From the UHGV virus genome UHGV-0128496: 16,551 nucleotides of DNA, one strand, 5' to 3'. Position numbers and translations under genes: made by a program. Source of the DNA: a virus. Below the pieces are notes generated by a model that was given only the letters and a program-made list of their open reading frames with translations, did no database searches and was not told the origin of the DNA. How positions within the stretch are numbered: the first letter of the stretch is position 1; each line of letters starts with the position of its first letter. Below, one piece after another: positions 2,275 to 16,551 of this stretch.

Positions 2275-3049
2275 TCTCCTGCTGCGGTGCTGCTGCCTGC
2301 TCAGCTGCCATAGCTGCATCGATTTGCTCACGTAATTTGGTCGCGTGATAATCGTCATCTTCATCCGTGATGGTCTGCGACCAGAAAATGCTATGGCTTC
2401 CGTAAACCATAGGCTCACGAACATCAACGGTTTTAGATACCAGCCAGTCCATGCGGAGTACGTCATCCGGAGTTACCGGAGAGTTGCCAGCCTGGAGAAT
2501 AGATTTCAGCGCTGCCCTTGGCATTGCCGACCAGGCAAGGAATACGTCTGGCCTGTCGACATCTTCTGTCGGGAGAGTGTTTTCTATTTCGTCCAGCGCA
2601 TCACTTAGCTTCTGAAATGCGTCGTCTGGAACAACGTGGCACTCTTCGCCATCAACATCTTGCTGACAGCTATCATCTGCGAGTTCGAATGCGGCCCAGC
2701 AAACATTGAGCAGCATTTCAATAACGCGACGGTGTTCTGCTGTTACGCAATTCTCCGGCACTACCTGCGCTGGCGTGGCAGTGTAGAGCGGAATTACCGC
2801 ATCTCCCATTGGCTGAGACAGGCACTTAAGGTGAAGATCACCCATCTTTGCATAAGCCAGAGTTTCCTCAGCGGCATAAAGCACAGGCTCAGCATTCAGG
2901 ACTTCATCAATCACCTTCACAGCATCAGCCATTGCGTAGCCGAGATTACCGCCGTCGCTTTGTGCTGCTGCGTTGCTGAGTATTTCGCTTATCTGGTGCA
3001 GGCGATCGAGTGATACAGGACCGTGCGCCGGGTGGTTGTTAGTTGTCAT
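2267..3049 (-). CDS. Hypothetical acidic phage protein (260 aa), function unknown
   Basis: Long ORF in the coupled early-left operon; AGGGAGGA RBS 7 nt upstream of the ATG at 3049. Asp/Glu-rich with cysteine clusters; no motif I can assign. Confidence 0.6.
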   Translation of the reverse strand: MTTNNHPAHGPVSLDRLHQISEILSNAAAQSDGGNLGYAMADAVKVIDEVLNAEPVLYAAEETLAYAKMGDLHLKCLSQPMGDAVIPLYTATPAQVVPENCVTAEHRRVIEMLLNVCWAAFELADDSCQQDVDGEECHVVPDDAFQKLSDALDEIENTLPTEDVDRPDVFLAWSAMPRAALKSILQAGNSPVTPDDVLRMDWLVSKTVDVREPMVYGSHSIFWSQTITDEDDDYHATKLREQIDAAMAAEQAAAPQQENV

Positions 3050-3052
3050 GGG

Positions 3053-3271
3053 TTAGTCCTCCCTGTACGGATTTAATTTGTTGTGCAGTTTGTTAAATGG
3101 CCCCCATACGATGGAGCTATACCACTCAGCTATCTTTTCTGCCTGTTCTCCTGCTAACCAGATGAGGACTATCGGTGATATTGGAATCATTAAAATAAGA
3201 AAGAGAAGGAAAAATAGAGCCTCTTTAACACGGCTTTGGCGCGGATAATTCTTCAGGAATATTTTGGTCAC
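3053..3271 (-). CDS. Small hydrophobic (membrane) protein, 72 aa
   Basis: GTG start overlapping the stop of the upstream HNH gene (GTGA). Strongly hydrophobic central segment ALFFLLFLILMIPISPIVLIWLA suggests one transmembrane helix. Confidence 0.45.
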   Translation of the reverse strand: MTKIFLKNYPRQSRVKEALFFLLFLILMIPISPIVLIWLAGEQAEKIAEWYSSIVWGPFNKLHNKLNPYRED

Positions 3272-3645
3272 AAGTTATCCCCCTCTTGATACCGCTCGAA
3301 CCAGAACACAACTGGTGCGTTAGTCTGTTTAACCAGGCCAAATGATTCCGCTGTGCGGTAACTTCTTGACGCACGGCGAGTTACATCAACCTGAGTGGCT
3401 ATGCGGCTGCGAAAGTCTTCTACTGTGCTGCACATTTTGAACAAGTTGCATGGAATGCATGCTGGAACCATGTTGCTGACCGTGTCATTTTCTGGCCTGT
3501 CCATTGCGTAGCCGTTGCTGATATTTCTTCGTACCGCTTCTACATGGTCTGCATGCCACTTATCGCCAAGTTCACAGCCGCAATAAGCACAGCGACCGCC
3601 AAACTTCATGCGCAGTTCTGCACGCTGTTTTTTCGTCAGTGCCAT
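3268..3645 (-). CDS. HNH endonuclease
   Basis: CAYCGC ... WHADHVEAV ... N ... VPACIPCN: HNH core (His-Asp-His, Asn) flanked by two CxxC zinc ligand pairs. Start lies 1 nt from the upstream gene's stop. Confidence 0.75.
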   Translation of the reverse strand: MALTKKQRAELRMKFGGRCAYCGCELGDKWHADHVEAVRRNISNGYAMDRPENDTVSNMVPACIPCNLFKMCSTVEDFRSRIATQVDVTRRASRSYRTAESFGLVKQTNAPVVFWFERYQEGDNL

Positions 3646-5262: not shown

Positions 5263-6180
5263 TTAGGCTGCGGGTTTTTGTGGCTGTTCTTCTTTGTACG
5301 AAAGAAGATCACACATCAGGTTTACTACTTTGCTGAATTGGATTAGATCCGTCCCGGCCTGATGGCGCCATTGAAATGCTTTATCATCTTCATCGTTGAA
5401 TGTTTGGGCTTGGGTATTGATGCGCGAAAAATGGAAATTTTCGGTGAGGATGAACGATACACCGCATCCTGCTAGCTCCATTTTATCAGCGGTAAAGCCG
5501 CTATTAAGGCTATCAACTAGCTCGCTTTGAATTGAGTCGTGTTCAGCTGAGTAGCGAATAACTTCATTTTGATCGGCAAGGCGGGACAGCTGGATATAAT
5601 TGCCGACGGTAAACCCTTCAAAAGCATTGGCCACGCCATTGATATAGTTTTTCAACCGCGTAGTTAAACCGTTCTTAATATCGCTAATGTTGATTGTTTC
5701 TGTTTTAACGGAACCGACAACTTTCACCAGCATAGCCACAGCCATACCGGCAATATTTTTATTGGTCGTATTGACCACTAATAGCTTTTCGTTGGTGCTG
5801 TACAACGCAAGGATCAGCGTTGATTTAACAAATGCCCGTTTACACAGGTCAACGCGGACGCTGTCGATAATTGCTAATCGTTCGATACGTTTGATTTTAC
5901 TCCCGGACATATCTTCGATTCTTTGGATCCGTGCTGCGGCTTCCTTCAAAACAACATGCTGGGGAATGATTTTCTGATCATGGCGGATCACGATGGCATA
6001 CCCACCTGATATTGGGGTGACCAATTCGCCAGTGATCGGGTTTGGCACAAAAGAGGCGCGTGAAAACTCAGTTTCACCAATCTCGGAGTAGGGGAGTTCA
6101 AGCAGATGCCCCTCGATAGCTTCAATGCTAGGTAGTGTGGCGCGGTACACGATTGCGTTACGGAACTTAGGTAATTTCAT
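5263..6180 (-). CDS. rdgC: RdgC-like recombination-associated protein
   Basis: 305-aa ORF whose length and sequence pattern (N-terminal FRNAIVYR, central hydrophobic core, C-terminal acidic tail) match my memory of E. coli RdgC (about 303 aa). AGAGGAAAG RBS 5 nt upstream of the ATG at 6180. Confidence 0.65.
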   Translation of the reverse strand: MKLPKFRNAIVYRATLPSIEAIEGHLLELPYSEIGETEFSRASFVPNPITGELVTPISGGYAIVIRHDQKIIPQHVVLKEAAARIQRIEDMSGSKIKRIERLAIIDSVRVDLCKRAFVKSTLILALYSTNEKLLVVNTTNKNIAGMAVAMLVKVVGSVKTETINISDIKNGLTTRLKNYINGVANAFEGFTVGNYIQLSRLADQNEVIRYSAEHDSIQSELVDSLNSGFTADKMELAGCGVSFILTENFHFSRINTQAQTFNDEDDKAFQWRHQAGTDLIQFSKVVNLMCDLLSYKEEQPQKPAA

Positions 6181-6513
6181 TTAACTTTCCTCTGCACAAG
6201 GTTTTAGTCCATACACGAAGTTAAGGCGGCTGCCACCGCCGAACTTTCTCCATACACAACAGAGAAGGGCACCTGCATTAGTCGGCGGCTTGAGAGACCG
6301 CTTTCTTTTTGCCCGGGTGGATTGGGTTATGAGCCCGTCGCCCGGTGATGCCCTTTTCTGTTGTGCCCTGAAAAAGGCTGGCGGTTACCGGAAATACACG
6401 GGAAAACACCGGGCCGCCAGAACAGGGAGTTACTTGTTATTGCTTTAGCCTGCTTTTAACCACATCAGGCGCGGTGGTATCTTGGTGTTCTCACACAACC
6501 AAGAGGGATGTTT

Positions 6514-6711
6514 ATGGGCGCTTTTGATAACCAGGAAATTACGTTACCCGCATGCCCTAAGTGCGGCACTAAGACGAAGAAGAAAATCGCTTGGCTCAAG
6601 TCGAACAAAAGTTTCACTTGTCGATGTGGAGCTACTATCAATGTCAACAGCAGCCAGCTTACTTCCGAAATCAGGAAGGTTGAGGACAAGCTGAAGAAGC
6701 TCTTTAAATAG
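6514..6711 (+). CDS. Small Cys4 zinc-ribbon protein (about 65 aa), lysine-rich
   Basis: CPKCG-x15-CRCG zinc-ribbon signature. AGAGGGA RBS about 6 nt before the ATG at 6514; an intrinsic terminator follows the stop. It lies antisense to the 3' half of the minus-strand ORF 6544..6910. Confidence 0.45.
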   Translation: MGAFDNQEITLPACPKCGTKTKKKIAWLKSNKSFTCRCGATINVNSSQLTSEIRKVEDKLKKLFK

Positions 6712-6910
6712 TTTTTTATCGACTGATATTATTTCGTTATCAGAGGTTGGTTTTTCAGCCTCTGATTTTTTAGTCAGGATCATTTTTTCTACACATGTGA
6801 CTACGCATTCCGAACAGATGGCAGGTTCGTCCTTACCACCTTTTGCGACGATCTTTATCGCTCCCAGTTCGGTTGCTCCGCAAAATGAGCATGTGAATAA
6901 ATGATTCATG
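6544..6910 (-). CDS. ClpX-type C4 zinc-finger domain protein (N-position early gene)
   Basis: N-terminus MNHLFTCSFCGATELGAIKIVAKGGKDEPAICSECVVTCVEKMI aligns by eye with the ClpX N-terminal zinc-binding domain (CSFCG ... IC-x-EC-V-x-x-C). ATG at 6910 with GGTAGAGG RBS. It is the first ORF downstream of the PL-like promoter. The C-terminal about 55 codons are antisense to the plus-strand zinc-ribbon ORF. Confidence 0.45.
6739..6772 (+). terminator. Rho-independent terminator after the zinc-ribbon ORF
   Basis: Stem atcagagg (6739-6746) / cctctgat (6759-6766) with a 12-nt loop, followed by TTTTT(T). It is not a terminator in the minus orientation because no U-tract follows there. Confidence 0.5.
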
Positions 6911-7018
6911 TAAACCTCTACCCCCAACCTAAGTTTTCTGTCAGCGAATCATCCGGTTATTCATATGCCACCGGCGGCTACTTCGTGGGCGTCCTGCCTG
7001 TTCGCTTTCGATGCAATG

Positions 7019-7048
7019 ACTATAGCTACTTTAAGTAGATAATTGCAA
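7019..7048 (-). promoter_or_regulatory. PL-like leftward early promoter with embedded operator
   Basis: On the minus strand: -35 TTGCAA (7043-7048), 18-bp spacer, -10 TATAGT (complement of 7019-7024). The spacer contains the inverted repeat CTACT-TTA-AGTAG (7026-7038), the same motif found in the cI-cro intergenic region. Degenerate AGTAG half-sites lie at 7057-7061 and 7076-7080. Confidence 0.4.
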
Positions 7049-7110
7049 CAACAAAAAGTAGAAAATGAAATTTTTAGTAGTGTAGTGTTATGAGGTGAGG
7101 AATTGGAGGC

Positions 7111-7140
7111 GTAAAAAAAACCGGCTTTCGCCGGTTTCTT
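7111..7140 (-). terminator. Rho-independent terminator ending the cI transcript
   Basis: Stem CCGGC (7121-7125) / GCCGG (7130-7134) with TTTC loop, flanked by A8 on the plus strand. On the minus strand this reads hairpin plus U8, 14 nt past the cI stop. It is much weaker in the plus orientation (TTTCTT). Confidence 0.6.
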
Positions 7141-7153
7141 GATGAATTAATTA

Positions 7154-7873
7154 TTAGCCAAACTCTATCATTTTTAGAGGTAAGCATCTGATTAGCTTGC
7201 CGAATATGTATAGTTCATTCATTTCATGCTCCTCTATGAAGAAGGGCGGGTAATGTTCATTGTCTGAAAGAACTGCCAGTCGGCGCCCTTTTACCTTCTG
7301 CAAACGTTTAACGAACGTACTGTCTTCAAAATTGAACACATAAACGCCGTCGCCGCTGAATTGTTCAACCTTGCTGTCTATGAAAAGCAGGTCCTTTGGG
7401 CAAAGCGTGGGCATCATGCTATCGCCATCAACATTTATCATGACGATGCCATCAAGGCTTCTACGACCAAACAACTCGAAGATCCTCTCTTCTGGAATCT
7501 CTATTGAGCTCACTATTGTAGGGAATGGTTGGTTTATATATCCGGAACCGGCTGAAGCATGAACATCCAATTGCTCTATTCTGACCGTGCCTTTGGCTGG
7601 CGCGTCGCCACCATTAACAGGCACACCATAATCAAGATAAGCCGGTGAGACGGCAAGTCTTTCTGCAATTCGAATCATCTTCTCATCTCTCGGCTTTGCA
7701 GTACCAAGAGTGTAGCGCCGCGCCATCTCATACGAGACACCACTGAACTCTGACAATTCTTTAACTCCAATAGATTGCTCTTGGAGAGACCTGTTTAGCC
7801 TTTCGGCAAAGTCTTTGTATTTAGCATTTTCCACCATAAGTAGAAGATTAAGCGCACAAGGCATAGTTGTCAT
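7154..7873 (-). CDS. cI: CI-like prophage repressor (N-terminal HTH, C-terminal S24 LexA-type peptidase)
   Basis: HTH segment VKELSEFSGVSYEMARRY; S24 self-cleavage signature VDGDSMMPT (Ser) and FVKRL (Lys). Coordinates are the maximal ORF. The in-frame ATG at 7837 (MVENAKYKDF...) is the more likely start: a PRM-like promoter (-35 ATGACA, complement of 7868-7873; 17-bp spacer; -10 TAATCT, complement of 7845-7850) would place the transcript start at that ATG, giving a leaderless mRNA as for lambda cI. Confidence 0.85.
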   Translation of the reverse strand: MTTMPCALNLLLMVENAKYKDFAERLNRSLQEQSIGVKELSEFSGVSYEMARRYTLGTAKPRDEKMIRIAERLAVSPAYLDYGVPVNGGDAPAKGTVRIEQLDVHASAGSGYINQPFPTIVSSIEIPEERIFELFGRRSLDGIVMINVDGDSMMPTLCPKDLLFIDSKVEQFSGDGVYVFNFEDSTFVKRLQKVKGRRLAVLSDNEHYPPFFIEEHEMNELYIFGKLIRCLPLKMIEFG

Positions 7874-7914
7874 TTCTATTTTAAGTTGCTAATAATTGCT
7901 ACTATAAGTAGTAT
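7831..7914. promoter_or_regulatory. Immunity-region operators with divergent PRM/PR promoters
   Basis: Three inverted-repeat sites of type CTACT-N3-AGTAG: perfect CTACT-ATA-AGTAG (7899-7911), degenerate CTATT-TTA-AGTTG (7876-7888) and CCACC-ATA-AGTAG (7831-7843). PR candidate: -35 TTGCTA (7886-7891), 17-bp spacer, -10 TAGTAT (7909-7914), upstream of the cro RBS AGGAGA (7933-7938). The operators overlap the -35 and -10 elements of both promoters. Confidence 0.45.
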
Positions 7915-7942
7915 TGATGCAGGCTTAGTCATAGGAGAACAC

Positions 7943-8200
7943 ATGTCATCTCAACACAAGAATGTAACAGCTAAAGCTGTGAAGGCGATCGGGTCGATTT
8001 CAGAGGTATCAAGGCGGTTTGAATTCCAATCAGTTCAATCTGTTGCGAACTGGATTGCAAAGAACCGAGTACCTTCTGAAAGAGTTATTCAACTCTGCCA
8101 ATGGGGCGGATGGGTAGTAACTCCCCATCAATTACGACCTGATATTTATCCGAACAAAAATGACGGCATACCTTCCGCTAACAACAATAGTCAACTTTAA
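7943..8200 (+). CDS. cro: Cro-like HTH regulator (YdaS-like)
   Basis: First rightward gene, divergent from cI. AGGAGA RBS 5 nt before the ATG at 7943. The segment AIGSISEVSRRFEFQSVQSVANWIAKNRVP is HTH-like. The track ORF begins at an upstream start with no SD. Confidence 0.6.
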   Translation: MSSQHKNVTAKAVKAIGSISEVSRRFEFQSVQSVANWIAKNRVPSERVIQLCQWGGWVVTPHQLRPDIYPNKNDGIPSANNNSQL

Positions 8201-8231
8201 GTTGATTATTAACTACCAGAGGGAAATCAAC

Positions 8232-8795
8232 ATGGTAGACAGCATAAATACAGCAATCCGCCTGATGTGTAAGGCACACAAGCATGGTCGCTTAGGTATG
8301 GCTTCCGATTTAGGGATGACTATCGACCAGTTCCACAACCACCTGTACCAGAAGTGTGGCAGTCGGTTCTTTACCTTGGCAGAACTGGAACGGATGGAGG
8401 ACCTGTCTGGTTCTTGTTACTTGGCCGAGTACCAGGCGAACCGAAAAGGGAAATGGCTGGTGGATGTTCCAACTGCTGAGAGCCTGGATAACGTTGAGCT
8501 GTACAGCATTGAGATGAAAGCGGCAGCAGCATCTGGTGAGCTGGCTAATGCCAAGATGGCAGCAGCGGCTGATGGGGTAATTGATTCATCAGAGCGCAAA
8601 ACGCTTTCAGAATTATTCAGTAAGAAGCTCCGCCACCAGATTCACGGGTTCCTGGGATTTATGGCGCTTTATGGGGTTGGTGTTTCAGATCAGGCGATTG
8701 ACGTATTCGTTTCAACAGGCAGAAAAGGTGACGCCCGCGAGTGTGCAGCTCCGGGCGCCTTGGCGTGTCGTATCAGTGGAGAAACTAACGCATGA
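8232..8795 (+). CDS. cII-position early protein (possibly YdaT-like), function unknown
   Basis: ORF directly after cro with AGAGGGAAA RBS 7 nt before the ATG at 8232. Its position matches ydaS-ydaT of Rac-like prophages, but I cannot confirm sequence similarity from memory. Confidence 0.45.
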   Translation: MVDSINTAIRLMCKAHKHGRLGMASDLGMTIDQFHNHLYQKCGSRFFTLAELERMEDLSGSCYLAEYQANRKGKWLVDVPTAESLDNVELYSIEMKAAAASGELANAKMAAAADGVIDSSERKTLSELFSKKLRHQIHGFLGFMALYGVGVSDQAIDVFVSTGRKGDARECAAPGALACRISGETNA

Positions 8796-9130
8796 ACAGT
8801 GTAAACCGATTCAGACCAGCTAAGCAATTCAGATGTTTGCCGCTGGTGGGTAAAGATGCCCAGTTCGGCTATGTGGAAATCATAAATAACGCGGCTGATG
8901 GAGGCAACTACCAGCCAGCAGACTTGATGGTAGAAGCATTTGTTCAGATGAACGAGAAGGGGCGCGAGGAATGGCTGAAGTTAACCGGCGGTTCAGAGAT
9001 CACTACGGAGTTCCCGTCAGAGTTGTCCGCTGGGAGCCAGATACACAGCGCGTTATATACCTTCGCGAAGGGTACGATCATGAGTGCTTCAGCCCTCTTG
9101 AACAATTCCAGCGTAAATTTACAGAATTAA
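8792..9130 (+). CDS. Hypothetical early protein (112 aa)
   Basis: Its ATG overlaps the upstream stop (ATGA), so it is coupled within the early-right operon. No recognisable motif. Confidence 0.5.
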   Translation: MNSVNRFRPAKQFRCLPLVGKDAQFGYVEIINNAADGGNYQPADLMVEAFVQMNEKGREEWLKLTGGSEITTEFPSELSAGSQIHSALYTFAKGTIMSASALLNNSSVNLQN

Positions 9131-9139
9131 AGGACGACC

Positions 9140-9994
9140 ATGAGCACTAAATTAACCGGTTACGTATGGGATGCATGCGCTTCGTCAGGCATGAAGTTAT
9201 CCAGCGTTGCCATCATGGCGCGTCTGGCAGACTTCAGCAGTGATGAAGGGGTTAGCTGGCCTTCCATCGCTACCATCGCGCGCCAGATTGGTGCTGGTGA
9301 GAGCACGGTTCGTACAGCCATATCTCAGCTGGAAAAAGATGGTTGGTTAACCCGCCAGCAGCGCCGTAAAGGCAACCGAAATGCATCGAACGTTTACCAG
9401 CTCAATGTTGCGAAATTGCAGGCTGCTGCCTTTTCTCACCTGTCAGATTCTGACGCATCAAAATCTGATGCCTCAAAAACAGACGCGTCAAAATCTGAGG
9501 CATCAAAAAACGATGAAAAAGGCGGTTTTCACCCGTCAGAATCTGGGGGGGATCCGTCAGTAAATACAACTACTGATCCATCAGTTAAAAAACCTTCTTG
9601 TCCGGTTGCGCCGCAACCAGACCCTGAAGTGATGATCACCGATAACGCCATCCTGGTTCTGAATCATCTGAACCTGGTTAGTGGCTCACGATACCAAAAA
9701 TCAAAAACTTCTCTGGAAAACATCCGTGCTCGTCTGCGTGAAGGTTACACCGTTAGCGACTTACAGCTGGTGATCGACCTTAAGCATGAGCACTGGAACG
9801 GCAATGACGTGCAGTACCAGTACATGCGTCCTGAAACGCTCTTCGGTCCGAAAAAATTTGAAGGTTATCTGCAAAGCGGGATCCGCTGGGACAAGAAGGG
9901 GCGGCCACCGCGTGACAGCTGGGGTGAAAAGAAACATGACCCGATGAAGTTCGGTCCGGTTGATAGCAAGATTCCAGAGGGGTTCAGAGGATGA
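9140..9994 (+). CDS. Replication initiation protein (lambda-O-like; N-terminal winged HTH, conserved phage C-terminal domain)
   Basis: N-terminus VAIMARLADFSSDEGVSWPSIATIARQIGAGESTVRTAISQLEKDGWL is typical of HTH_36-type initiators. A low-complexity linker (DASKS x4) precedes a conserved C-terminal domain (VLNHLNLVSGSRYQ ... LFGPKKFEGYLQ). The position after the cro/cII module matches a replication gene. Confidence 0.7.
   Translation: MSTKLTGYVWDACASSGMKLSSVAIMARLADFSSDEGVSWPSIATIARQIGAGESTVRTAISQLEKDGWLTRQQRRKGNRNASNVYQLNVAKLQAAAFSHLSDSDASKSDASKTDASKSEASKNDEKGGFHPSESGGDPSVNTTTDPSVKKPSCPVAPQPDPEVMITDNAILVLNHLNLVSGSRYQKSKTSLENIRARLREGYTVSDLQLVIDLKHEHWNGNDVQYQYMRPETLFGPKKFEGYLQSGIRWDKKGRPPRDSWGEKKHDPMKFGPVDSKIPEGFRG
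9452..9511 (+). repeat. Four tandem 15-bp iteron-like repeats inside the initiator gene (putative origin)
   Basis: gacgcatcaaaatct / gatgcctcaaaaaca / gacgcgtcaaaatct / gaggcatcaaaaaac, with partial copies on both sides. Each has a near-palindromic GAYGCRTC core and an A-tract. Lambda ori likewise lies as iterons inside the O gene. Confidence 0.45.
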
Positions 9995-11325
9995 TGGAAA
10001 ATAAATACTGCCGTGCACTGGCTGAACTCCGTTCAAAACCAGCACACGAGTTGAAAGAGGTCGGTGATCAATGGCGCACTCCGGATCTGTTGTTTTGGGG
10101 GATCAATGCGATGTTCGGCCCTCTGGTGTTGGACCTTTTTGCCGACGACAGCAACGCGAAGTGCCCAGCATGGTACACGGCTGAAGATAATGCCCTGACG
10201 CAGGATTGGTCAGAGCGGCTGGCAGAACTCGGTGGTGCCGGGTTTGGCAACCCGCCTTACAGCCGCTCTCAGTACCACGACAAGCAGGCCGTTACCGGAA
10301 TGACCCACATCATTAACCACGCTATGGCCATGCGAGAAAAGGGTGGTCGGTACGTTTTTCTCATTAAGTCTGCGACGAGTGAAACGTGGTGGCCGGAAGA
10401 GGCAGATCACGTCACATTCATCCGTGGCCGAATTGGTTTCGATCTTCCTACATGGTTCGTGCCGAAAGACGAAAAGCAGCAGCCCACCAGCGCATTTTTT
10501 GCTGGCGCTATCGTGGTCTTCGACAAAACATGGCGGGGTGAGCGTTTCAGTTACATCAACCGCACCGACCTGGAGGCCAAAGGCCGTGCTGCGATGTCGC
10601 TGGCCCAATTTGCCGTGGGAAGAACGCAAACTGATGCGGCGCCAGAGCTGGACGCTGAGGTAGTGCCGAAGAAATCAGAGGCAGAACTGCCATTAACCCA
10701 AAAAGCCATTCTGGAAACCAGCGGTGTAGAGGCTTGGGCCTGTGTTGTCGCGGCGTTCGGCGAGAAAGACGAGTACACCTTCAGCGAGTCAAAGTTTGGT
10801 CATACCTGGGCTGCCGACTCTCTGGAAAACCCTGAATTTACCAATGTTTCACCGCTGACGATCGACAGAGCGAAAAAGCTGATCAGCGAGAGCATCCTGG
10901 TGGGTGTTAATGCATGGCTGGAAACATTGCCCTTTGATAGCGATGACGTGAAACAAGACATGTCAGAGCGGTTACGCACGGTTGCCGTTGAGTCTGCGAA
11001 AGAATACGGCATTAACCACAGTGAATTCATCGCGACCATGGAAAGCCTGGATAAAGCCAAATGGTCAAATATTCGGGGGATCCGCGCCCATGTCCGTGAG
11101 ACGCAGGAATCAAAGGACAAGGCGTTAAACGAATCGCGCGTTTGGCCTCTTGAGGTTGGACTGGTGTTTAACCAGATTGAAGGGGCTGACGCTCTACCTG
11201 TTTCGCAGCAGAACAAGCTGAAAGCCAATATCAACCAGCTGTGGCTCGAACGTATGCCGACGAGTGAAATTATCACGACCGCTGGTGGTCTCTTCAACAG
11301 CATGCAGGGGGCCGTCAATGCGTGA
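9991..11325 (+). CDS. Phage Dam-family N6-adenine DNA methyltransferase with about 240-aa C-terminal extension
   Basis: N-terminal about 200 aa carry WRTPD and the catalytic FGNPPYS (NPPY) motif of phage Dam-type N6A MTases. Its ATG overlaps the initiator stop (ATGATG). Residues about 205-444 have no motif I recognise. Confidence 0.8.
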   Translation: MMENKYCRALAELRSKPAHELKEVGDQWRTPDLLFWGINAMFGPLVLDLFADDSNAKCPAWYTAEDNALTQDWSERLAELGGAGFGNPPYSRSQYHDKQAVTGMTHIINHAMAMREKGGRYVFLIKSATSETWWPEEADHVTFIRGRIGFDLPTWFVPKDEKQQPTSAFFAGAIVVFDKTWRGERFSYINRTDLEAKGRAAMSLAQFAVGRTQTDAAPELDAEVVPKKSEAELPLTQKAILETSGVEAWACVVAAFGEKDEYTFSESKFGHTWAADSLENPEFTNVSPLTIDRAKKLISESILVGVNAWLETLPFDSDDVKQDMSERLRTVAVESAKEYGINHSEFIATMESLDKAKWSNIRGIRAHVRETQESKDKALNESRVWPLEVGLVFNQIEGADALPVSQQNKLKANINQLWLERMPTSEIITTAGGLFNSMQGAVNA

Positions 11326-13255
11326 AATTATCGTTGATAACTTTGCTGGTGGCGGCGGCGCGAGTACCGGCATTGAACTGGCGATCGGGCGTAGCGTGGA
11401 TATCGCTATCAACCACGACGAAAACGCTATTGCGATGCATAAGACGAATCACCCTGACACGCTGCATTATTGCGAGTCGGTGTTTGACGTTGACCCAAGC
11501 GCAGCCACCAGCGGTAAACCTGTCGGTCTGGCCTGGTTTAGCCCTGACTGCCGCCACTTTTCCAAGGCGAAGGGCGCTAAGCCGGTTAAGAAAGAGATTC
11601 GCGGGCTGGCGTGGATTGTCCTGCGCTGGGCGCTGGCAGTACGTCCCCGCGTCATGATGCTGGAGAACGTCGAAGAGTTTAAGACATGGGGCCCGCTGCT
11701 GGATGAAGAATTACGCCCGGATCCTGAGCGTGCTGGCGAAACATTCGAGGCATTTGTCGGCATGCTGTCGACGGGGATCGCGGCGAATCACCCTGCGCTG
11801 GCTGAGGTTTGTGAATTCCTTGCCATTGAGCCGCACGGCCAGCAGGCGCAACAGCTGATCGCCGGGCTTGGTTATGAGGTTGATTATCGGGAGCTGCGCG
11901 CATGTGACTACGGCGCGCCGACGATCAGAAAGCGTTTCTTCATGGTCATGCGCTGTGACGGCCGCAAGATTCATTGGCCTGAAGCGACTCATGGGGATCC
12001 AAAATCACTGGAAGTACAAAGCGGCAAGCTGGCGCCATGGCGTACCGCGGCGGAGTGCATTGACTGGAATATCCCGGCCCGGTCCATCTTCGACCGCAAA
12101 AAGCCGCTGGCGGAAAATACGCTCAAACGTATCGCGCGCGGCATCCAGCGCTTTGTTATCGAAAGCGCATCACCTTTCATCGTGAAGTGTAACCACACCA
12201 CGACGAAAGGAGGTTATGACTGTTTCCGCGGGCAATCGTTGTTAGAGCCATTGCAGACCATCACTAAAAAGCATGGCTACGCACTGGCGGTACCGCATCT
12301 TACTAAATTCCGCACCGGGGCCACCGGGCAGCCAGTGACCGAGCCGGTACCAACTGTCACCGCTGGTACGTCGGCGCGCCCGGGCGGGAATGGGCATGCG
12401 CTTGGCGTAGTTGAGGCCGCCCTGACACCGTTCCTGGCTGGCAATGGCGGCAGTGAGTACCAGGCAAAGCCGCGCCCGCTGGATAAACCCGCTCATACAA
12501 TCCTCAAGCAGTCCCGCGCGTGCGTGGTTGCGCCGGTCATCGCCCGCCAGTTTGGAGCCAGTGTTGGGCACAGGGCTGACGAACCGAGTGCGACGATTAC
12601 TGCAGGTGGTGGCGGTAAGTCGCAGCTGGTAACTCCAACACTGATCCAGATGGGGTACGGCGAACGCCCAGGGCAAGAACCGCGTGTTCTTCAACTGAAT
12701 AACCCGCTCGGCACGGTCACTGCTGGTGGTAATAAGTTTGCAACGGTGAGCGCGTTCCTGGCGAAGCACTATGGTGGGAATTACACGGGGCCGGGTGTTG
12801 GTATGGATGAGCCTGCCCACTCAGTCACTACTGTTGATCACCACGCGGTAGTTGCGTCGCACCTGGTGAAGCTGCGCGGAACCTGCCGCGACGGTCAGAC
12901 CATGGATACACCTATGCCGACGATTACCGCTGGTGGCCAGCACGTTGGCGAGGTCCGGACATTCCTCGAAACCTACTGCGGTGATAGCGAGGATGAATGG
13001 CTGGTGACGATCGAGGGGGTTAAGTACCAGATCGTCGATATCGGAATGCGCATGCTGCAACCGCATGAGCTTTATAAGGCGCAGGGCTTCCCTGACGGCT
13101 ACGTTATCGATCAGGACTATCGCGGCAATCGTTACGCCAAAGACAAGCAGGTAGCGCGCTGTGGTAACGCAGTACCGCCGCCGTTCGCTCGTGCGCTGGT
13201 AGAAGCAAATCTTCCTGAATTATGTGCAAATCAAAAGGCGGGTGCAGCCGCCTGA
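11318..13255 (+). CDS. DNA cytosine-5 methyltransferase (large, repeat-containing variable region)
   Basis: Motif I FAGGGGAS, an ENV motif (MLENVEEF) and C-terminal CGNAVPPP; the Cys motif reads SPDCRHFS rather than canonical PCQ. Start taken at the ATG at 11318 (MREIIVDNFAGGGG), overlapping the Dam stop; the track ORF extends upstream in the same frame. The region between the catalytic and C-terminal motifs holds about five P-x-x-T-[VI]-T-A-G-G repeats. Confidence 0.8.
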   Translation: MREIIVDNFAGGGGASTGIELAIGRSVDIAINHDENAIAMHKTNHPDTLHYCESVFDVDPSAATSGKPVGLAWFSPDCRHFSKAKGAKPVKKEIRGLAWIVLRWALAVRPRVMMLENVEEFKTWGPLLDEELRPDPERAGETFEAFVGMLSTGIAANHPALAEVCEFLAIEPHGQQAQQLIAGLGYEVDYRELRACDYGAPTIRKRFFMVMRCDGRKIHWPEATHGDPKSLEVQSGKLAPWRTAAECIDWNIPARSIFDRKKPLAENTLKRIARGIQRFVIESASPFIVKCNHTTTKGGYDCFRGQSLLEPLQTITKKHGYALAVPHLTKFRTGATGQPVTEPVPTVTAGTSARPGGNGHALGVVEAALTPFLAGNGGSEYQAKPRPLDKPAHTILKQSRACVVAPVIARQFGASVGHRADEPSATITAGGGGKSQLVTPTLIQMGYGERPGQEPRVLQLNNPLGTVTAGGNKFATVSAFLAKHYGGNYTGPGVGMDEPAHSVTTVDHHAVVASHLVKLRGTCRDGQTMDTPMPTITAGGQHVGEVRTFLETYCGDSEDEWLVTIEGVKYQIVDIGMRMLQPHELYKAQGFPDGYVIDQDYRGNRYAKDKQVARCGNAVPPPFARALVEANLPELCANQKAGAAA

Positions 13256-13269
13256 TATGGAGAAATAGC

Positions 13270-13962
13270 ATGAATCAGTTAACCGCTAAGGGTGTTGTGA
13301 CAATGTCCAGCCGTGAAATTGCCAGGCTGGTGCAGAGCAAACATGGTGATGTGAAGCGCTCAGCTGAGCGCCTTGCATCTGCTGGTATTTTAACCGCGCC
13401 GTTGGCGCACACCCCCTACACACACCCGCAAAACGGGCAAACCTACGAGGAGTATTGGTTTAACAAACGTGATTCTCTGGTGATCGTCGCCAGGCTGTCG
13501 CCAGAATTTACCGCCGCTGTTGTCGATCGCTGGCAAGAGCTGGAGAACAGCCAGGCCGTAAGTGTCCCGCAAACATTGCCGGAGGCATTACGTCTCGCCG
13601 CGGATCTGGCCGAGCAGAAAGAACAACTCAGCCAGCAGTTAGCCGCTGCCGCGCCGAAAGTTGAGTTTGTCGATCGATATTGTACTGCCAAAGGCTCAAT
13701 GTCTTTCCGCCAGGTGGCAAAGCTGTTGCAGGCCAAAGAGACCGATTTCCGCTTGTTCCTCATTGAGAGCGGCATTTTGTACCGGCTCAGTGGAGTGCTG
13801 ACACCTCGGCACCAGCACATTGCTGCCGGGCGGTTTGAAGTGAAAACTGGCACTACGAGCGAAACAAACTACGCCTTTAGCCAGGCACGTTTTACACCCA
13901 AAGGCATCGAGTGGATCGGCGGCCTGTGGACGGCACACATCGCTAAGGGGCATGCCGCGTGA
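13270..13962 (+). CDS. Rha-family regulator / antirepressor (Rha N-terminal domain plus KilA-C/ANT-like C-terminus)
   Basis: N-terminus MSSREIARLVQSKHGDVKRSAERL resembles the Rha domain; C-terminal EALRLAADLAEQKEQL ... KVEFVDRY resembles ANT/KilA-C. GGAGAAA RBS 5 nt before the ATG at 13270. Confidence 0.65.
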   Translation: MNQLTAKGVVTMSSREIARLVQSKHGDVKRSAERLASAGILTAPLAHTPYTHPQNGQTYEEYWFNKRDSLVIVARLSPEFTAAVVDRWQELENSQAVSVPQTLPEALRLAADLAEQKEQLSQQLAAAAPKVEFVDRYCTAKGSMSFRQVAKLLQAKETDFRLFLIESGILYRLSGVLTPRHQHIAAGRFEVKTGTTSETNYAFSQARFTPKGIEWIGGLWTAHIAKGHAA

Positions 13963-15020
13963 GAGGACTGTTTACAGCCGAGACTGTTCCGCGCCTTGGG
14001 CTTGTGCTGTTAAAGCCGGGTAGCGAACTGATGTCTTTGTTTCAACAGGGGCGTGTGCTGGTGGAGCCTCAGCCAAAAAGCATGGCTGGGCTTCCGTCGG
14101 GGCTCGTCCCTGATGCCCGGCAGCCGCTGGCAGAAGATAAGTCCCTCGAGGAATTCTTCACCGACGAGAGAGTTATCCGTGCAGCAGGCGGTTTGTCCGG
14201 GTTGGAATCCTGGCTAGAGCGTAACGTGAAGGAATGCCAGTACCCGCACACTAATTATCACCATCATGAGCTGGTAACGATGCGACATCCCCCTGGATCA
14301 ATGTTGCTCTGTTGGCATTGCGATAACCAGCTGCGCGAGCAAACCACCGCGGCGCTGGCAGAACTGGCCCGGCGTAATCTCATTAACTGGCTGATCAGTT
14401 CTATCCTGTCTTCGCTTGGCTACAACAACGAGCGTGAACTATCCCTCGGTGAATTGTGCTGGTGGGCCGTTTACTCAGGCATTGCTGATGCAATCACGGA
14501 AAGGATGGCCCAGCATGCGCTTCGCTTACCGGATGAGCCGTTTTTATCCGTATATCGCGAAAGTGACATTGTGCCGATGCCACCGACAAAAAACATTTTG
14601 CAGAAGAAGGTCACCCCTGCGGTCACGGCTGCGCATTTAAAGCATGGAACAAATCAGGAAGTGGCCTATGACCAGCCACAGGTTCTGGCTCTGCATGCGG
14701 ATCCTGAATCCCCTGAATCATTCATGTTGCGCCCAAAACACCGCAGGTGGGTGAATGAGGACTATACCCGGTGGGCTAAAACCCAGCCCTGTGAAGGTTG
14801 CCGGCGGCCAGCGGATGATCCACACCATGTCATTGGTCACGGCATGGGCGGTACCGCCACTAAAGCCCACGATTTGTTCGTGATCCCTCTGTGCAGAGAG
14901 TGTCACGACAAATTACATGCTGATGTTGCAGCGTTCGAGAAAAAACACGGTACCCAGCTGGAGCTGCTATTCCGATTTATGAATCGAGCGCTGGCGATCG
15001 GCGTAATAACAAAAGCGTAA
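13959..15020 (+). CDS. DUF968-like prophage protein with C-terminal HNH-like zinc motif
   Basis: GTG start overlapping the Rha stop (GTGA), with AAGGGG 8 nt upstream. C-terminus PCEGCRRPADDPHHVIGHGMGGTATKAHDLFVIPLCRECHDKLH has an HNH-like arrangement (CxxC ... HH ... CxxCH). I recall DUF968 (YdfU-like) proteins sitting next to Q in Qin-like prophages. Confidence 0.5.
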   Translation: MRGLFTAETVPRLGLVLLKPGSELMSLFQQGRVLVEPQPKSMAGLPSGLVPDARQPLAEDKSLEEFFTDERVIRAAGGLSGLESWLERNVKECQYPHTNYHHHELVTMRHPPGSMLLCWHCDNQLREQTTAALAELARRNLINWLISSILSSLGYNNERELSLGELCWWAVYSGIADAITERMAQHALRLPDEPFLSVYRESDIVPMPPTKNILQKKVTPAVTAAHLKHGTNQEVAYDQPQVLALHADPESPESFMLRPKHRRWVNEDYTRWAKTQPCEGCRRPADDPHHVIGHGMGGTATKAHDLFVIPLCRECHDKLHADVAAFEKKHGTQLELLFRFMNRALAIGVITKA

Positions 15021-15041
15021 TTGTATGGAGCGCTGAGCATA

Positions 15042-15734
15042 ATGAATTTACAAGAACTGGAATATACGCGGATTGAACTGCGCCGCGCGCTGGCGGATTT
15101 ATCAGGATCGACAAAAGGACAGCTGCAGGCGTTCAGTGAGCATCCACCAGCAGATAAGAATAAATACCCCCGGCACCATCCTGAAATCGTCATGGAGGGT
15201 GGGGAAGGTTGTGGGTCAAAGGTTGTAACAACGCTGGCCACTCCATTTTATGTTCTTGAGACAAGGAGCCGTCGTCGACCTTTGCCGCCTATTAAAGATA
15301 CGGAGTTCGCTTGTTCAGCATGGCGTCGTTCGGTCAATGGTCTGGGTGAGCATTTGCAGGCATGGGTGCGGTACTGCTATGGGTATGACCTTACTTTCCG
15401 GTACCAGACATTGATGTGCCAGCACGTGTGGGAACAGTTTCAGCGTCAGCATAGCGGCAAAAAAATACAGGGCCGCGTCACTAAAAAACTGGTAGGGCTT
15501 GTCTGGCTGGCGGCGCAAGAAGTTGCTGCCTCGCGTAATAACGATACCTATCAGGAGTATGCTGGTGCAGCTCTGGCGCGCATGGTCAGCGTTGAGCGTT
15601 CCACCTGGCTCAGAGTGTATTCAGGCCACTGGGCGGCTTTCAAAGCGTCGTTTGCTGAAATGGATAGCCAGGCACTAAGCGAAATTTTGTCACGGTACGA
15701 AGAGTACCAAGAACTGAAAGTGGCGGAAATGTGA
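15042..15734 (+). CDS. Late-gene antitermination protein Q-like
   Basis: Last gene of the early-right operon, immediately upstream of a promoter-plus-terminator pair. Size and sequence fit my recollection of enterobacterial Q-like proteins. Start placed at the ATG at 15042 (MNLQELEY...). Confidence 0.5.
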   Translation: MNLQELEYTRIELRRALADLSGSTKGQLQAFSEHPPADKNKYPRHHPEIVMEGGEGCGSKVVTTLATPFYVLETRSRRRPLPPIKDTEFACSAWRRSVNGLGEHLQAWVRYCYGYDLTFRYQTLMCQHVWEQFQRQHSGKKIQGRVTKKLVGLVWLAAQEVAASRNNDTYQEYAGAALARMVSVERSTWLRVYSGHWAAFKASFAEMDSQALSEILSRYEEYQELKVAEM

Positions 15735-15792
15735 GGTAACTTTCACTAACTCCCTCAAATGGGCTTGCAAAATGCAACAAAATGAGCCATAT

Positions 15793-15821
15793 TTGAAGCT
15801 AATTTTATATTTTGTCATAAT
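15793..15821 (+). promoter_or_regulatory. PR'-like late promoter candidate
   Basis: -35 TTGAAG (15793-15798), 17-bp spacer, -10 CATAAT (15816-15821), just upstream of a terminator. An alternative is TTGCAA (15765-15770) with CATATT (15788-15793). Confidence 0.4.
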
Positions 15822-15831
15822 TATATCTAAC

Positions 15832-15853
15832 CTCGCCTCGGCGGGGTTTTTTT
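15832..15853 (+). terminator. tR'-like rho-independent terminator
   Basis: GC-rich hairpin cctcgcc-tcg-gcgggg followed by T7 (15847-15853). Its position directly after Q and a promoter matches the lambdoid 6S-RNA/tR' arrangement. Confidence 0.6.
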
Positions 15854-15932
15854 ATGCCTTTTGTATCTAAAGCTTGATGCAAAAATGAACCAGAGTTATC
15901 TGTGTGTCACACGATAAAAAAGGGGAAAAGGC

Positions 15933-16124
15933 ATGCAAAATCAACCTTATATGACAGAAGAAGCAAAAGCGGTTTTTAACGAACTCAGCGCTTCACCAGC
16001 GACAGCTGGGGAAATTGCACAGAATACGCACCTAAGCCGAGAGAAATGCCAGCTCATCCTGACGCAGCTGGTTATGGCGGGGTTATCAGATTACCAGTTT
16101 GGATGTTACAAACGCCTCCACTGA
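15933..16124 (+). CDS. Small hypothetical protein (63 aa), possible winged-helix DNA-binding
   Basis: AAGGGGAAAAGG RBS directly upstream of the ATG at 15933. The segment ATAGEIAQNTHLSREKCQLILTQLVMAGL is HTH-like. It is the first gene after tR'. Confidence 0.4.
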   Translation: MQNQPYMTEEAKAVFNELSASPATAGEIAQNTHLSREKCQLILTQLVMAGLSDYQFGCYKRLH

Positions 16125-16274
16125 AGGGGGCATTCTGCTGTGGAAATGGGCGGCTGGTGGGTGTTGTAGCACCCAACCAGCCATTAGCTCATGCTTTCAG
16201 GTCACAAGCTAACCAAGGCCCACTGCTTTAGCGCAAAAGCATAGTGAGCCTATCAGAGTTACGCTTACGGATCT

Positions 16275-16530
16275 ATGAAAAATACTGTAAATATAAACAG
16301 TGTTGAGCTTATCAACGCTGACTGCCTGCAATACCTCGCTACCCTCCCAGATAACACCATCGACCTTATTGTTACGGATCCGCCTTATTTTAAGGTGAAG
16401 CCGAACGGCTGGGATAATCAGTGGAACGGTGACGCCGACTATCTTCGATGGCTTGATATGTGTCTTGCCCAGTTCTGGCGAGTGCTTAAGCCTGCCGGCA
16501 GCCTGTATTTGTTTTCAGGTCACCGACTTG
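16275..16530 (+). CDS. DNA methyltransferase, N6-adenine/N4-cytosine beta-class (5' fragment, truncated by contig end)
   Basis: Hand translation: MKNTVNINSVELINADCLQYLATLPDNTIDLIVTDPPYFKVKPNGWDNQWNGDADYLRWLDMCLAQFWRVLKPAGSLYLFSGHRL, with the DPPY catalytic motif near the N-terminus. No stop codon before the adapter junction at 16531. Confidence 0.7.
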
Positions 16531-16551
16531 AGATCGGAAGAGCACACGTCT
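16531..16551. other. Illumina TruSeq adapter (sequencing artifact, not biological)
   Basis: The last 21 nt, agatcggaagagcacacgtct, exactly match the start of the TruSeq adapter AGATCGGAAGAGCACACGTCTGAACTCCAGTCA. Confidence 0.9.

Follow-up and report, generated by a model that had tools for sequence, protein, structure and literature searches.

The window, by which we mean the whole stretch of 16,551 nucleotides analysed here from the virus genome UHGV-0128496, ends in a short region downstream of an antiterminator gene Q. In this region (positions 15735–16530), we found a small open reading frame (ORF) for a winged-helix-like protein, a conserved structured RNA leader of about 135 nt and the beginning of a DNA methyltransferase (MTase) gene. 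A preliminary description of the same DNA had reported the small winged-helix-like ORF, the DNA MTase and, between them, the exact 12-bp bulged hairpin; all three are present, at or at most one base from where it had placed them. The two genes lie directly 3' of a module of Q, promoter-like sites and a terminator, in the slot that holds stx in Shiga toxin (Stx) phages. What the preliminary description had missed is that the hairpin is one helix of the larger conserved leader.

Genes and control elements at the locus

The gene for the antiterminator Q (15021–15734, + strand, 237 aa) is of the lambda-Q type (PF06323, 4.6e-41; phrog_304, 4.5e-72). Just 3' of it, the + strand carries two candidates for the late promoter PR', TTGCAA-17-CATATT (15763–15791), which was found by eye, and TTGAAG-17-CATAAT (15793–15821), which was called by a scan. 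They are followed on the same strand by a tR'-like intrinsic terminator (15829–15856), called by a terminator scan, with an 8-bp G+C-rich stem (15829–15848) and a run of seven T. All parts of a lambdoid late-control module are present, that is, the Q gene, a candidate sigma-70 promoter just 3' of it and then an intrinsic terminator. The promoter block (15763–15821) is nearly identical in phage phiNP, where the terminator is conserved as well. Between tR' and the MTase gene, a consensus scan called no promoter-like site, and the downstream genes are probably expressed in dependence on Q. The interval between Q and the terminator (15763–15828) holds several -10-like hexamers (CATATT, TATATT and CATAAT) and two overlapping promoter-like sites, and some of these hexamers may be sigma-70-dependent pause elements for Q loading. 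A PR' transcript that ended at the terminator would measure only about 30–60 nt.

The MTase gene (16275–16530, + strand) starts with the ATG at 16275 and is cut by the contig end after 85 of its 350 codons. This contig end is an assembly artefact. The window is 100% identical to Escherichia phage Phi06_2987 S (KM389288) over 15000–16530 and 99.9% identical over 6220–16530. It diverges from this otherwise 100% identical genome exactly at its last 21 bases (16531–16551, no strand assigned), and these bases, AGATCGGAAGAGCACACGTCT, which we take to be an Illumina adapter, are not phage sequence. KM389288 runs 3.5 kb further and encodes the complete MTase of 350 aa, followed directly by a P21-type holin, an endolysin of the lysozyme family and Rz with an embedded Rz1. 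The preliminary description had seen an MTase rather than lysis genes at this site; the lysis genes appear to be lacking because the contig stops at 16530, and extension by means of KM389288 places the MTase gene in a conserved late or lysis operon. We detected no toxin genes in the KM389288 extension, and no tRNA genes downstream of Q, as they occur in Stx phages, in either the window or KM389288.

The full MTase protein, taken from KM389288, matches PF01555 (N6_N4_Mtase) at 4.4e-43 over residues 29–340. It contains DPPY at residues 35–38 (16377–16388 of the window) and FMGSGS at residues 310–315, and this order of motifs (DPPY, central recognition domain, FxGxG) is that of the beta-class M.EcoGII family of N6-adenine DNA MTases. 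Sequence matches in the PDB, among them M.RsrI, M.MboIIA and CcrM, cover an N-terminal and a C-terminal block that flank an insert of about 165 residues. Over its full length, the protein has 75.7% identity with the MTase of phage 1720a-02, which is itself described as very similar to M.EcoGII (PMC5778455). On this indirect evidence, we therefore file the window enzyme as a putative member of the M.EcoGII family, and it would be expected to methylate adenine non-specifically.

M.EcoGII and M.EcoGI originate from prophages of E. coli O104:H4. Like the window MTase, they are prophage-borne beta-class enzymes of about 350 aa (349 aa for M.EcoGII) with the motif order DPPY, recognition domain and FxGxG; unlike here, the paper on these enzymes describes no upstream leader (PMC5778455). 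Both have been reported to be silent in lysogens, and constitutive expression of M.EcoGII was deleterious (PMC5778455). The reported silence in lysogens fits late, Q-dependent expression.

Two further MTase genes are located in the early/nin region of the window. The product of the first (9991–11325) has 444 aa and a Dam-type PF05869 domain, and that of the second (11264–13255) has 663 aa and a C5-cytosine PF00145 domain, so that 16.5 kb hold three MTases, each of a different class. We also considered a link to Koudelka's two-subunit 'rRNA methyltransferase' M.ECPA8_3172P/PNB-2 from Stx phages and rejected it, as this enzyme is encoded about 2.4 kb away from the int end of PA2/PA8 and not after Q (PMC4587872). 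No PA-type phage is among the 90 phage records that carry the window-type MTase.

Conservation and structure of the leader

The hairpin (16152–16182, + strand) has precisely the form given in the preliminary description, that is, 12 bp with a bulge and without a U-tract. Its arms GGCTGGTGGGTG (16152–16163) and CACCCAACCAGCC (16170–16182) enclose the loop TTGTAG and contain one bulged A, and the stem is followed in the window by ATTAGCTCATGC. It is conserved far beyond chance. Across 72 homologous sequences, 95.8% of the alignment cells are paired, nine of the 12 pairs have changed on both sides, and a U-tract after the hairpin was found in none. Within the leader, the hairpin makes up the inner portion of helix P1. 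The leader spans 16140–16274 on the + strand and is recognised by a covariance model with 157 bits (E = 1e-34).

In an alignment of four phages, the block between the winged-helix ORF and the MTase gene is more conserved than either coding sequence. In all 11 comparisons made, the nucleotide identity of the element is higher than that of the MTase coding sequence (e.g. 95% versus 72.5%, and 82% versus 72%), and an exact 18-mer from the element occurs in at least 120 IMG/VR contigs. In addition, 80 species-level loci were gathered independently by means of the MTase protein across GTDB species. With nhmmer, the element was found to end at the MTase ATG in 55 of these loci, and the covariance model detected it in 60, where it abuts either the MTase ATG or, in Vibrio, the ATG of an intervening zinc-ribbon ORF. 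Its range according to the covariance model comprises the Enterobacterales, including Proteus, Providencia and Morganella, whose MTase is about 60% identical, and several Vibrio; a weak match was found in Gilliamella.

No open frame is common to all element sequences, and in 45 of 75 each of the three frames is interrupted by stops; furthermore, the lengths of the element vary by non-multiples of three. A protein-coding reading, for which a 61-aa ORF (16046–16231) was the candidate, is ruled out by the lack of a frame that is open throughout and by indels that are not multiples of three. We found no family at gathering score in Rfam 15; matches were at chance level only (istR with 22 bits versus a required 45, and P26 on the minus strand with 20.3 versus 36). 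The known small RNAs (sRNAs) AgvB, AsxR, Pas and StxS were rejected as candidates, as they carry terminators and are located elsewhere, and our literature searches returned no description of the element. The leader is apparently an undescribed, widely conserved structured RNA.

The consensus that RNAalifold inferred from a structure-blind MAFFT alignment of 44 diverse sequences is only partial. A hand-built structure, S1, was therefore tested separately, with controls in which the pairing partners were slid and with 500 shuffles, both on this alignment and on a model-fitted alignment of 72 distinct sequences. S1 proposes the following helices on the + strand: the outer part of P1 (16146–16151 with 16187–16192), the inner part of P1, which is the hairpin (16152–16163 with 16170–16182), P2 (16199–16203 with 16270–16274), P2b (16206–16208 with 16264–16266), P3 (16217–16223 with 16244–16250) and P4 (16224–16229 with 16236–16241), to which a candidate pairing P0 (16140–16143 with 16202–16205) can be added. 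In total, P1 comprises about 18 bp, which form a near-continuous helix with bulges of 4 nt and 1 nt. On the MAFFT alignment, 88.9% of the cells pair in S1, compared to 30–45% in the slid controls, and 16 pairs have changed on both sides, compared to 5–9. On the model-fitted alignment, 93.1% of the cells pair and 17 pairs have changed on both sides. Over all slid controls, 27–45% of the cells were paired, and none of the 500 shuffles reached the observed values in either alignment.

Compensatory changes occur in four helices of the element, including the second domain, in which a conserved middle segment (AGGUC..AAG) pairs with the 11 bases just 5' of the MTase AUG. For P2, 92.8% of the cells are paired and two of five pairs have changed on both sides; for P2b, these values are 93.7% and three of three, with AAG/CUU being replaced by GGA/UCU in Morganellaceae. 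The helix at the start region is formed by different sequences in different lineages, namely by AGGUC with GAUCU just 5' of the AUG in enterics, by GUCAUA with UAUGAC in Vibrio and by GGUCAU with AUGACC in Gilliamella. Folds of minimum free energy, calculated from single sequences of five lineages, show the same two-domain architecture (z-scores of -3.3 to -6.1), and the start region is paired in all of them. A further helix, termed (ii), between CUCAU and ACAAG was rejected: it is fully paired only in Morganellaceae, and its two central positions are A.C and C.A in 57 of 72 sequences.

Some additional features of the leader and its surroundings were observed. The strands of outer P1 and P3 (16146–16151, 16187–16192, 16218–16222 and 16245–16249) are pseudo-symmetric (AUGGGC resembles GUGAGC, and GCUCAU resembles GCCCAC), so that they could swap partners without loss of pairs, which may reflect a switch or an ancient duplication. 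Just 5' of the MTase ATG, nearly all enteric copies (all but two in the alignment) have a GATC (16271–16274) that constitutes a Dam site in the DNA and the 3' strand of P2 in the RNA. In Vibrio and Gilliamella this GATC is not kept, and the AUG itself takes part in the helix. In the locus of Vibrio phage Val-yong3, an unannotated winged-helix-like ORF on the + strand (2790–3086) precedes the element, an annotated minus-strand coding sequence (2954–3316) that overlaps it is probably spurious, and an ORF of 38 aa with a CxxC..CxxC pattern (3362–3478), which bears the annotation RNA polymerase subunit P, separates the element from the MTase gene. Upstream of the MTase region, Vibrio and Psychromonas loci share the motif GCCTTGAGTACCTGAGAC (at about 3176–3193 in the Val-yong3 locus, and at about 2850–2875 in loci L193 and L195). 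It also occurs in loci without the RNA element and could serve these phages as a late-promoter or regulator site.

The winged-helix slot and the distribution of the cassette

The ORF of 63 aa between tR' and the leader (15933–16124, + strand) matches phrog_331, a family without assigned function, at 2.6e-29. Matches to Pfam winged-helix families remain below threshold (DprA_WH, 1.4e-4; TrmB, 6.6e-4), and homologues are listed in RefSeq as 'TrmB family transcriptional regulator' or 'DprA-like winged helix domain-containing protein'. With a profile built from 18 homologues, we obtained matches to winged-helix domains in the PDB (DsyB, 2e-4; ArsR, 6e-3). A single-sequence AlphaFold2 (AF2) model has three helices and a pLDDT of 74; its top Foldseek matches are the winged-helix domains of Lrp, MarR, ArsR, DsyB and AspA, with a root mean square deviation of 1.2–1.4 Å and non-significant E-values. 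The wording 'winged helix-turn-helix-like' in the preliminary description is thus a fair one for the predicted fold, and binding of nucleic acids is putative.

The winged-helix ORF lies upstream of the element in about 40 of the 80 species loci. In other loci, the slot is occupied by unrelated ORFs (of 221, 79, 299 or 823 aa) or by nothing, or a Q-like gene directly precedes the MTase leader. The ORF is thus variable, swappable cargo, with a polymorphism of presence and absence at a fixed position between conserved neighbours. A consensus scan of 15857–15932 showed no promoter-like site from which it could be transcribed on its own. Over its stop codon, we read from the sequence and the alignments a terminator-like hairpin, GCCTCC/ACTGAA/GGGGGC (16114–16131, + strand), which the terminator scan did not call. 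The window has a weak U-tract at this hairpin (ATTCTGCTG), and Stx2a-type copies have a strong one (GCCTTCAGtccCTGAAGGCTTTTTTATTT; about 5835–5865 in locus L004). The hairpin would turn the ORF into a terminator-bounded unit unless Q-modified polymerase reads through. On the other side of the ORF, alignment A1 shows the block CAGAGTTATCTGTGTGTCAC (15891–15911) to be conserved in phages whose Q/PR'/tR' modules are unrelated, and this block marks the 5' boundary of the mobile winged-helix cassette.

In two IMG/VR loci (L022 and L060) and in E. coli hits H112–H115, the winged-helix ORF and P1 are kept and the MTase gene is replaced. In loci of the L022/L060 type, the ORF and P1 are followed by genes for a 237-aa protein, a nanS-like esterase and a holin. 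The recombination breakpoint in these loci lies in the 3' arm of P1, which is still paired by means of four G-U wobbles. RefSeq lists a DUF3927 protein beside the winged-helix ORF in H112–H115; we made no direct link between this protein and the 237-aa ORF.

The order of Q, small ORF(s), MTase, holin, endolysin and spanin is also annotated in phages Eeyore and phiNP, and in Vibrio phage Val-yong3 the genes for holin, endolysin and spanins come after that for an MTase with 58% identity. Among 81 loci with the MTase (the 80 GTDB species loci and the Val-yong3 locus, L126), at least 33 have the MTase gene next to the lysis genes. As this adjacency is recurrent, we conclude that the MTase gene is a conserved first gene of the late operon and not incidental cargo. 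The preliminary description had regarded both genes as cargo-like, which holds for the winged-helix ORF, whose distribution is that of swappable cargo, and fails for the MTase, which comes first in the late operon before the lysis genes. The variable cargo positions are the slot from tR' to the leader and the slot after the MTase gene. Compared to morons and the cargo after tR' (stx, LT-II), the winged-helix ORF likewise shows a polymorphism of presence and absence and ends in a terminator-like hairpin; unlike morons, it has no promoter of its own that we could detect, and the MTase gene is a conserved member of the operon.

Stx2a and Stx2c converting phages carry a different Q, a homologue of the winged-helix ORF, an MTase (76–78% identical) and tRNA genes (three in Stx2a, two in Stx2c). 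In the Stx2a phage examined, stx2A, stx2B, the gene for a nanS-p-like esterase and lysis genes come after the tRNAs; in the Stx2c phage, the order is Q, winged-helix ORF, MTase, tRNAs and stx2AB. More generally, the late regions of Stx2a, Stx2c and Stx2e phages (Stx2_KH16-043, Stx2c_JNE090279, phiP27 and 1720a-02) contain homologous versions of the ORF, the leader and the MTase in the same place after Q and tR', with identities of about 76–79% for the MTase and 82% for the leader. However, Q has 131 aa in the Stx2 phages and is of the lambda type (PF06323) in the window phage. The window phage also has neither tRNAs nor stx, so that, unlike in the Stx2 phages, its lysis genes directly follow the MTase gene.

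The 90 phage records with this MTase include SfV, cdtI, mEp460, phiP27, SerU-LTIIb and 1720a-02. Among 5426 complete E. coli genomes, the Stx-type cassette is present in 2246 (41%), with up to 10 copies per genome, and the cassette variant of the window is present in 48. The lysogen E. coli CX21, for instance, has 99.2% identity to the window over 15735–16530. The gene content and gene order of the locus are thus ordinary and already known in databases.

Possible functions of the leader

The position of the second domain suggests a function in translation. P2 and P2b together cover positions -1 to -11 of the MTase start, and the majority of copies lack a Shine-Dalgarno sequence 5' of GATCYATG. 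Because the start region is paired and a Shine-Dalgarno sequence is absent from most copies, translation of the MTase is probably held low or delayed. Our best explanation, which we consider fairly probable as a whole, is that 15735–16530 forms the beginning of the late operon in an stx-negative lambdoid phage whose backbone resembles that of Stx phages, and that the leader acts in cis on the mRNA by occluding the start region, which keeps a potentially toxic methylase low or delayed. RNA polymerase would start at PR' and, once modified by Q, would read through tR'; the optional small winged-helix gene would be transcribed next, then the structured leader of about 135 nt, and transcription would proceed into the M.EcoGII-family adenine DNA MTase gene and directly on to holin, endolysin and Rz/Rz1. 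The leader would repress translation, and some trigger may open the structure. The enzyme would then appear late in infection and in limited amounts, and would methylate progeny DNA before packaging.

Related arrangements are known from other phages. In com-mom of phage Mu, a late, potentially toxic DNA-modification gene likewise has its start buried in an mRNA stem, and the ORF of 38 aa with CxxC..CxxC just 5' of the MTase gene in the Vibrio relatives recalls this arrangement. However, com-mom has no sequence relationship to the window leader, which is larger (about 135 nt and two domains), and the zinc-ribbon ORF is not present in the window. We rejected homology of this Vibrio ORF to Mu Com, as its Pfam match to Com (E = 0.28) is indistinguishable from that of generic zinc ribbons, so that only an analogy remains. 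The lambda cIII mRNA and the lambda N leader are likewise cis-acting structured leaders of lambdoid phages; they too contain a long helix and may pair in alternative ways that make the start more or less accessible. They differ in gene, position and sequence from the late-operon leader described here, for which a role of RNase III would be hypothetical.

Several observations weigh against start-site occlusion by the leader or limit how far S1 can be taken. Homologous MTases occur without the element, namely in loci L150 and L158 and in most Vibrio, Aliivibrio and Shewanella loci, and a weak GGA at -8 to -6 of the window copy may permit some translation. The covariation derives mostly from a few deep splits (enterics, Morganellaceae and Vibrio), and the number of independent events is lower than the cell counts suggest; furthermore, the model-fitted alignment is biased towards the structure. 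The ratio of G:U to A:C is only 203:77, so the assignment of the strand rests mainly on context. Finally, the invariant UGGGC and GCCCA are complementary to each other and other alternative pairings exist, so that S1 may be one state only.

The preliminary description had proposed that the hairpin is a processing or attenuation element. A regulatory RNA is broadly right and processing is possible; attenuation is unlikely, and because no lineage has a U-tract, we exclude a terminator or attenuator. As for processing, P1 might be a site at which RNase III cuts or stabilises the transcript, separating the part with the winged-helix ORF from the part with the MTase and lysis (or stx) genes, or activating translation of the MTase. 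We regard this as a possibility clearly behind start-site occlusion, with which it is compatible, and the lambda N leader and the T7 R sites could serve as precedents. The near-continuous helix of about 18 bp, its compensatory changes and the lack of a U-tract, which makes P1 no terminator, all agree with it, as does the retention of P1 in L022 and L060, where other genes replace the MTase. However, a bulged helix of 18 bp would be among the shorter substrates of RNase III, and P1 alone leaves both the conservation of the second domain and its pairing with the start codon region unexplained.

The leader might instead be a two-state switch, riboswitch-like or responsive to a protein, that frees the start region upon a signal such as S-adenosylmethionine (SAM) or S-adenosylhomocysteine (SAH), the MTase, the winged-helix protein or the timing of co-transcriptional folding. 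The alternatives would be P0 or P2, and GCUCA or GCCCA as the partner of UGGGC. In each of the 72 sequences, the invariant AAUGGGCG is complementary to GCCCA, which forms the 5' strand of P3, with the sole variant (Mixta) being changed on both sides, and GCUCA and UGAGC could then pair together. A pairing of 4 bp between the 5' flank (GUGR) and the middle (UCAY), which would compete with P2, is possible in 69 of 72 sequences against a background of 21%, and changes from GUGA/UCAC to AUGA/UCAU in Vibrio; the full formation of helix (ii), found in Morganellaceae only, would also agree with a second state. Yet invariant motifs yield almost no covariation, which leaves the evidence thin, and the changes in Mixta and Gilliamella fit a static fold equally well. 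No known riboswitch class was matched in the Rfam 15 search and no ligand is indicated, and the winged-helix gene is missing from many loci that keep the element. As a static fold explains these features equally well, the switch is a minority reading that we consider rather unlikely. The same low probability applies to a broader version, in which an undescribed, widespread RNA with two folds gates the translation of the non-specific adenine methylase family that is encoded first in lambdoid late operons, possibly by sensing SAM/SAH or through autoregulation by the methylase, and could affect the processing of toxin mRNA. Methylases of the M.EcoGII family can also methylate RNA.

We give very little credence to two further explanations. 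The hairpin could be a palindromic DNA operator for the adjacent winged-helix protein, which would control the MTase in the manner of a C-protein controller; the small gene is indeed located immediately upstream of the hairpin, and the two stay together in loci of the L022/L060 type, which have no MTase. However, the hairpin is unchanged in at least 17 loci without the winged-helix gene, the covarying helices P2 and P2b span about 60–70 nt and cannot be half-sites, and G:U pairs exceed A:C pairs by the ratio given above. It is similarly improbable that the element is an independent sRNA gene or a transcription attenuator within the late operon. In favour of this, the block is highly conserved and non-coding, its 5' edge carries TGTGRAAAT, which bears a weak resemblance to an extended -10, and the late regions of prophages do encode the sRNAs StxS and Pas (PMC7547250; bioRxiv 10.64898/2026.05.13.724894). 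However, our scan called no promoter at the element and no terminator after it, the -10-like hexamer of the window copy has no key A2, and all lineages lack a U-tract after any of the helices. Furthermore, the element always ends at a start codon and pairs with the start region, and the Pas sRNAs carry terminators and adjoin esterase and holin genes, which is not the position of the window element.

We thus favour start-site occlusion by a cis-acting leader. Enzymes of the M.EcoGII family are widely used tools that are harmful if freely expressed, and we know of no mechanism for their reported silence in lysogens. A conserved RNA that buries the start codon is a testable explanation for this silence. 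The leader is the only part of our findings that is of real interest; the question of cargo adds little to it. In Stx2c, Stx2e and some Stx2a phages, the element lies on the same transcript just 5' of the Shiga toxin genes. As it is thus located on the late transcript immediately 5' of stx2 in several types of Stx phages, its processing or folding could also influence toxin expression.

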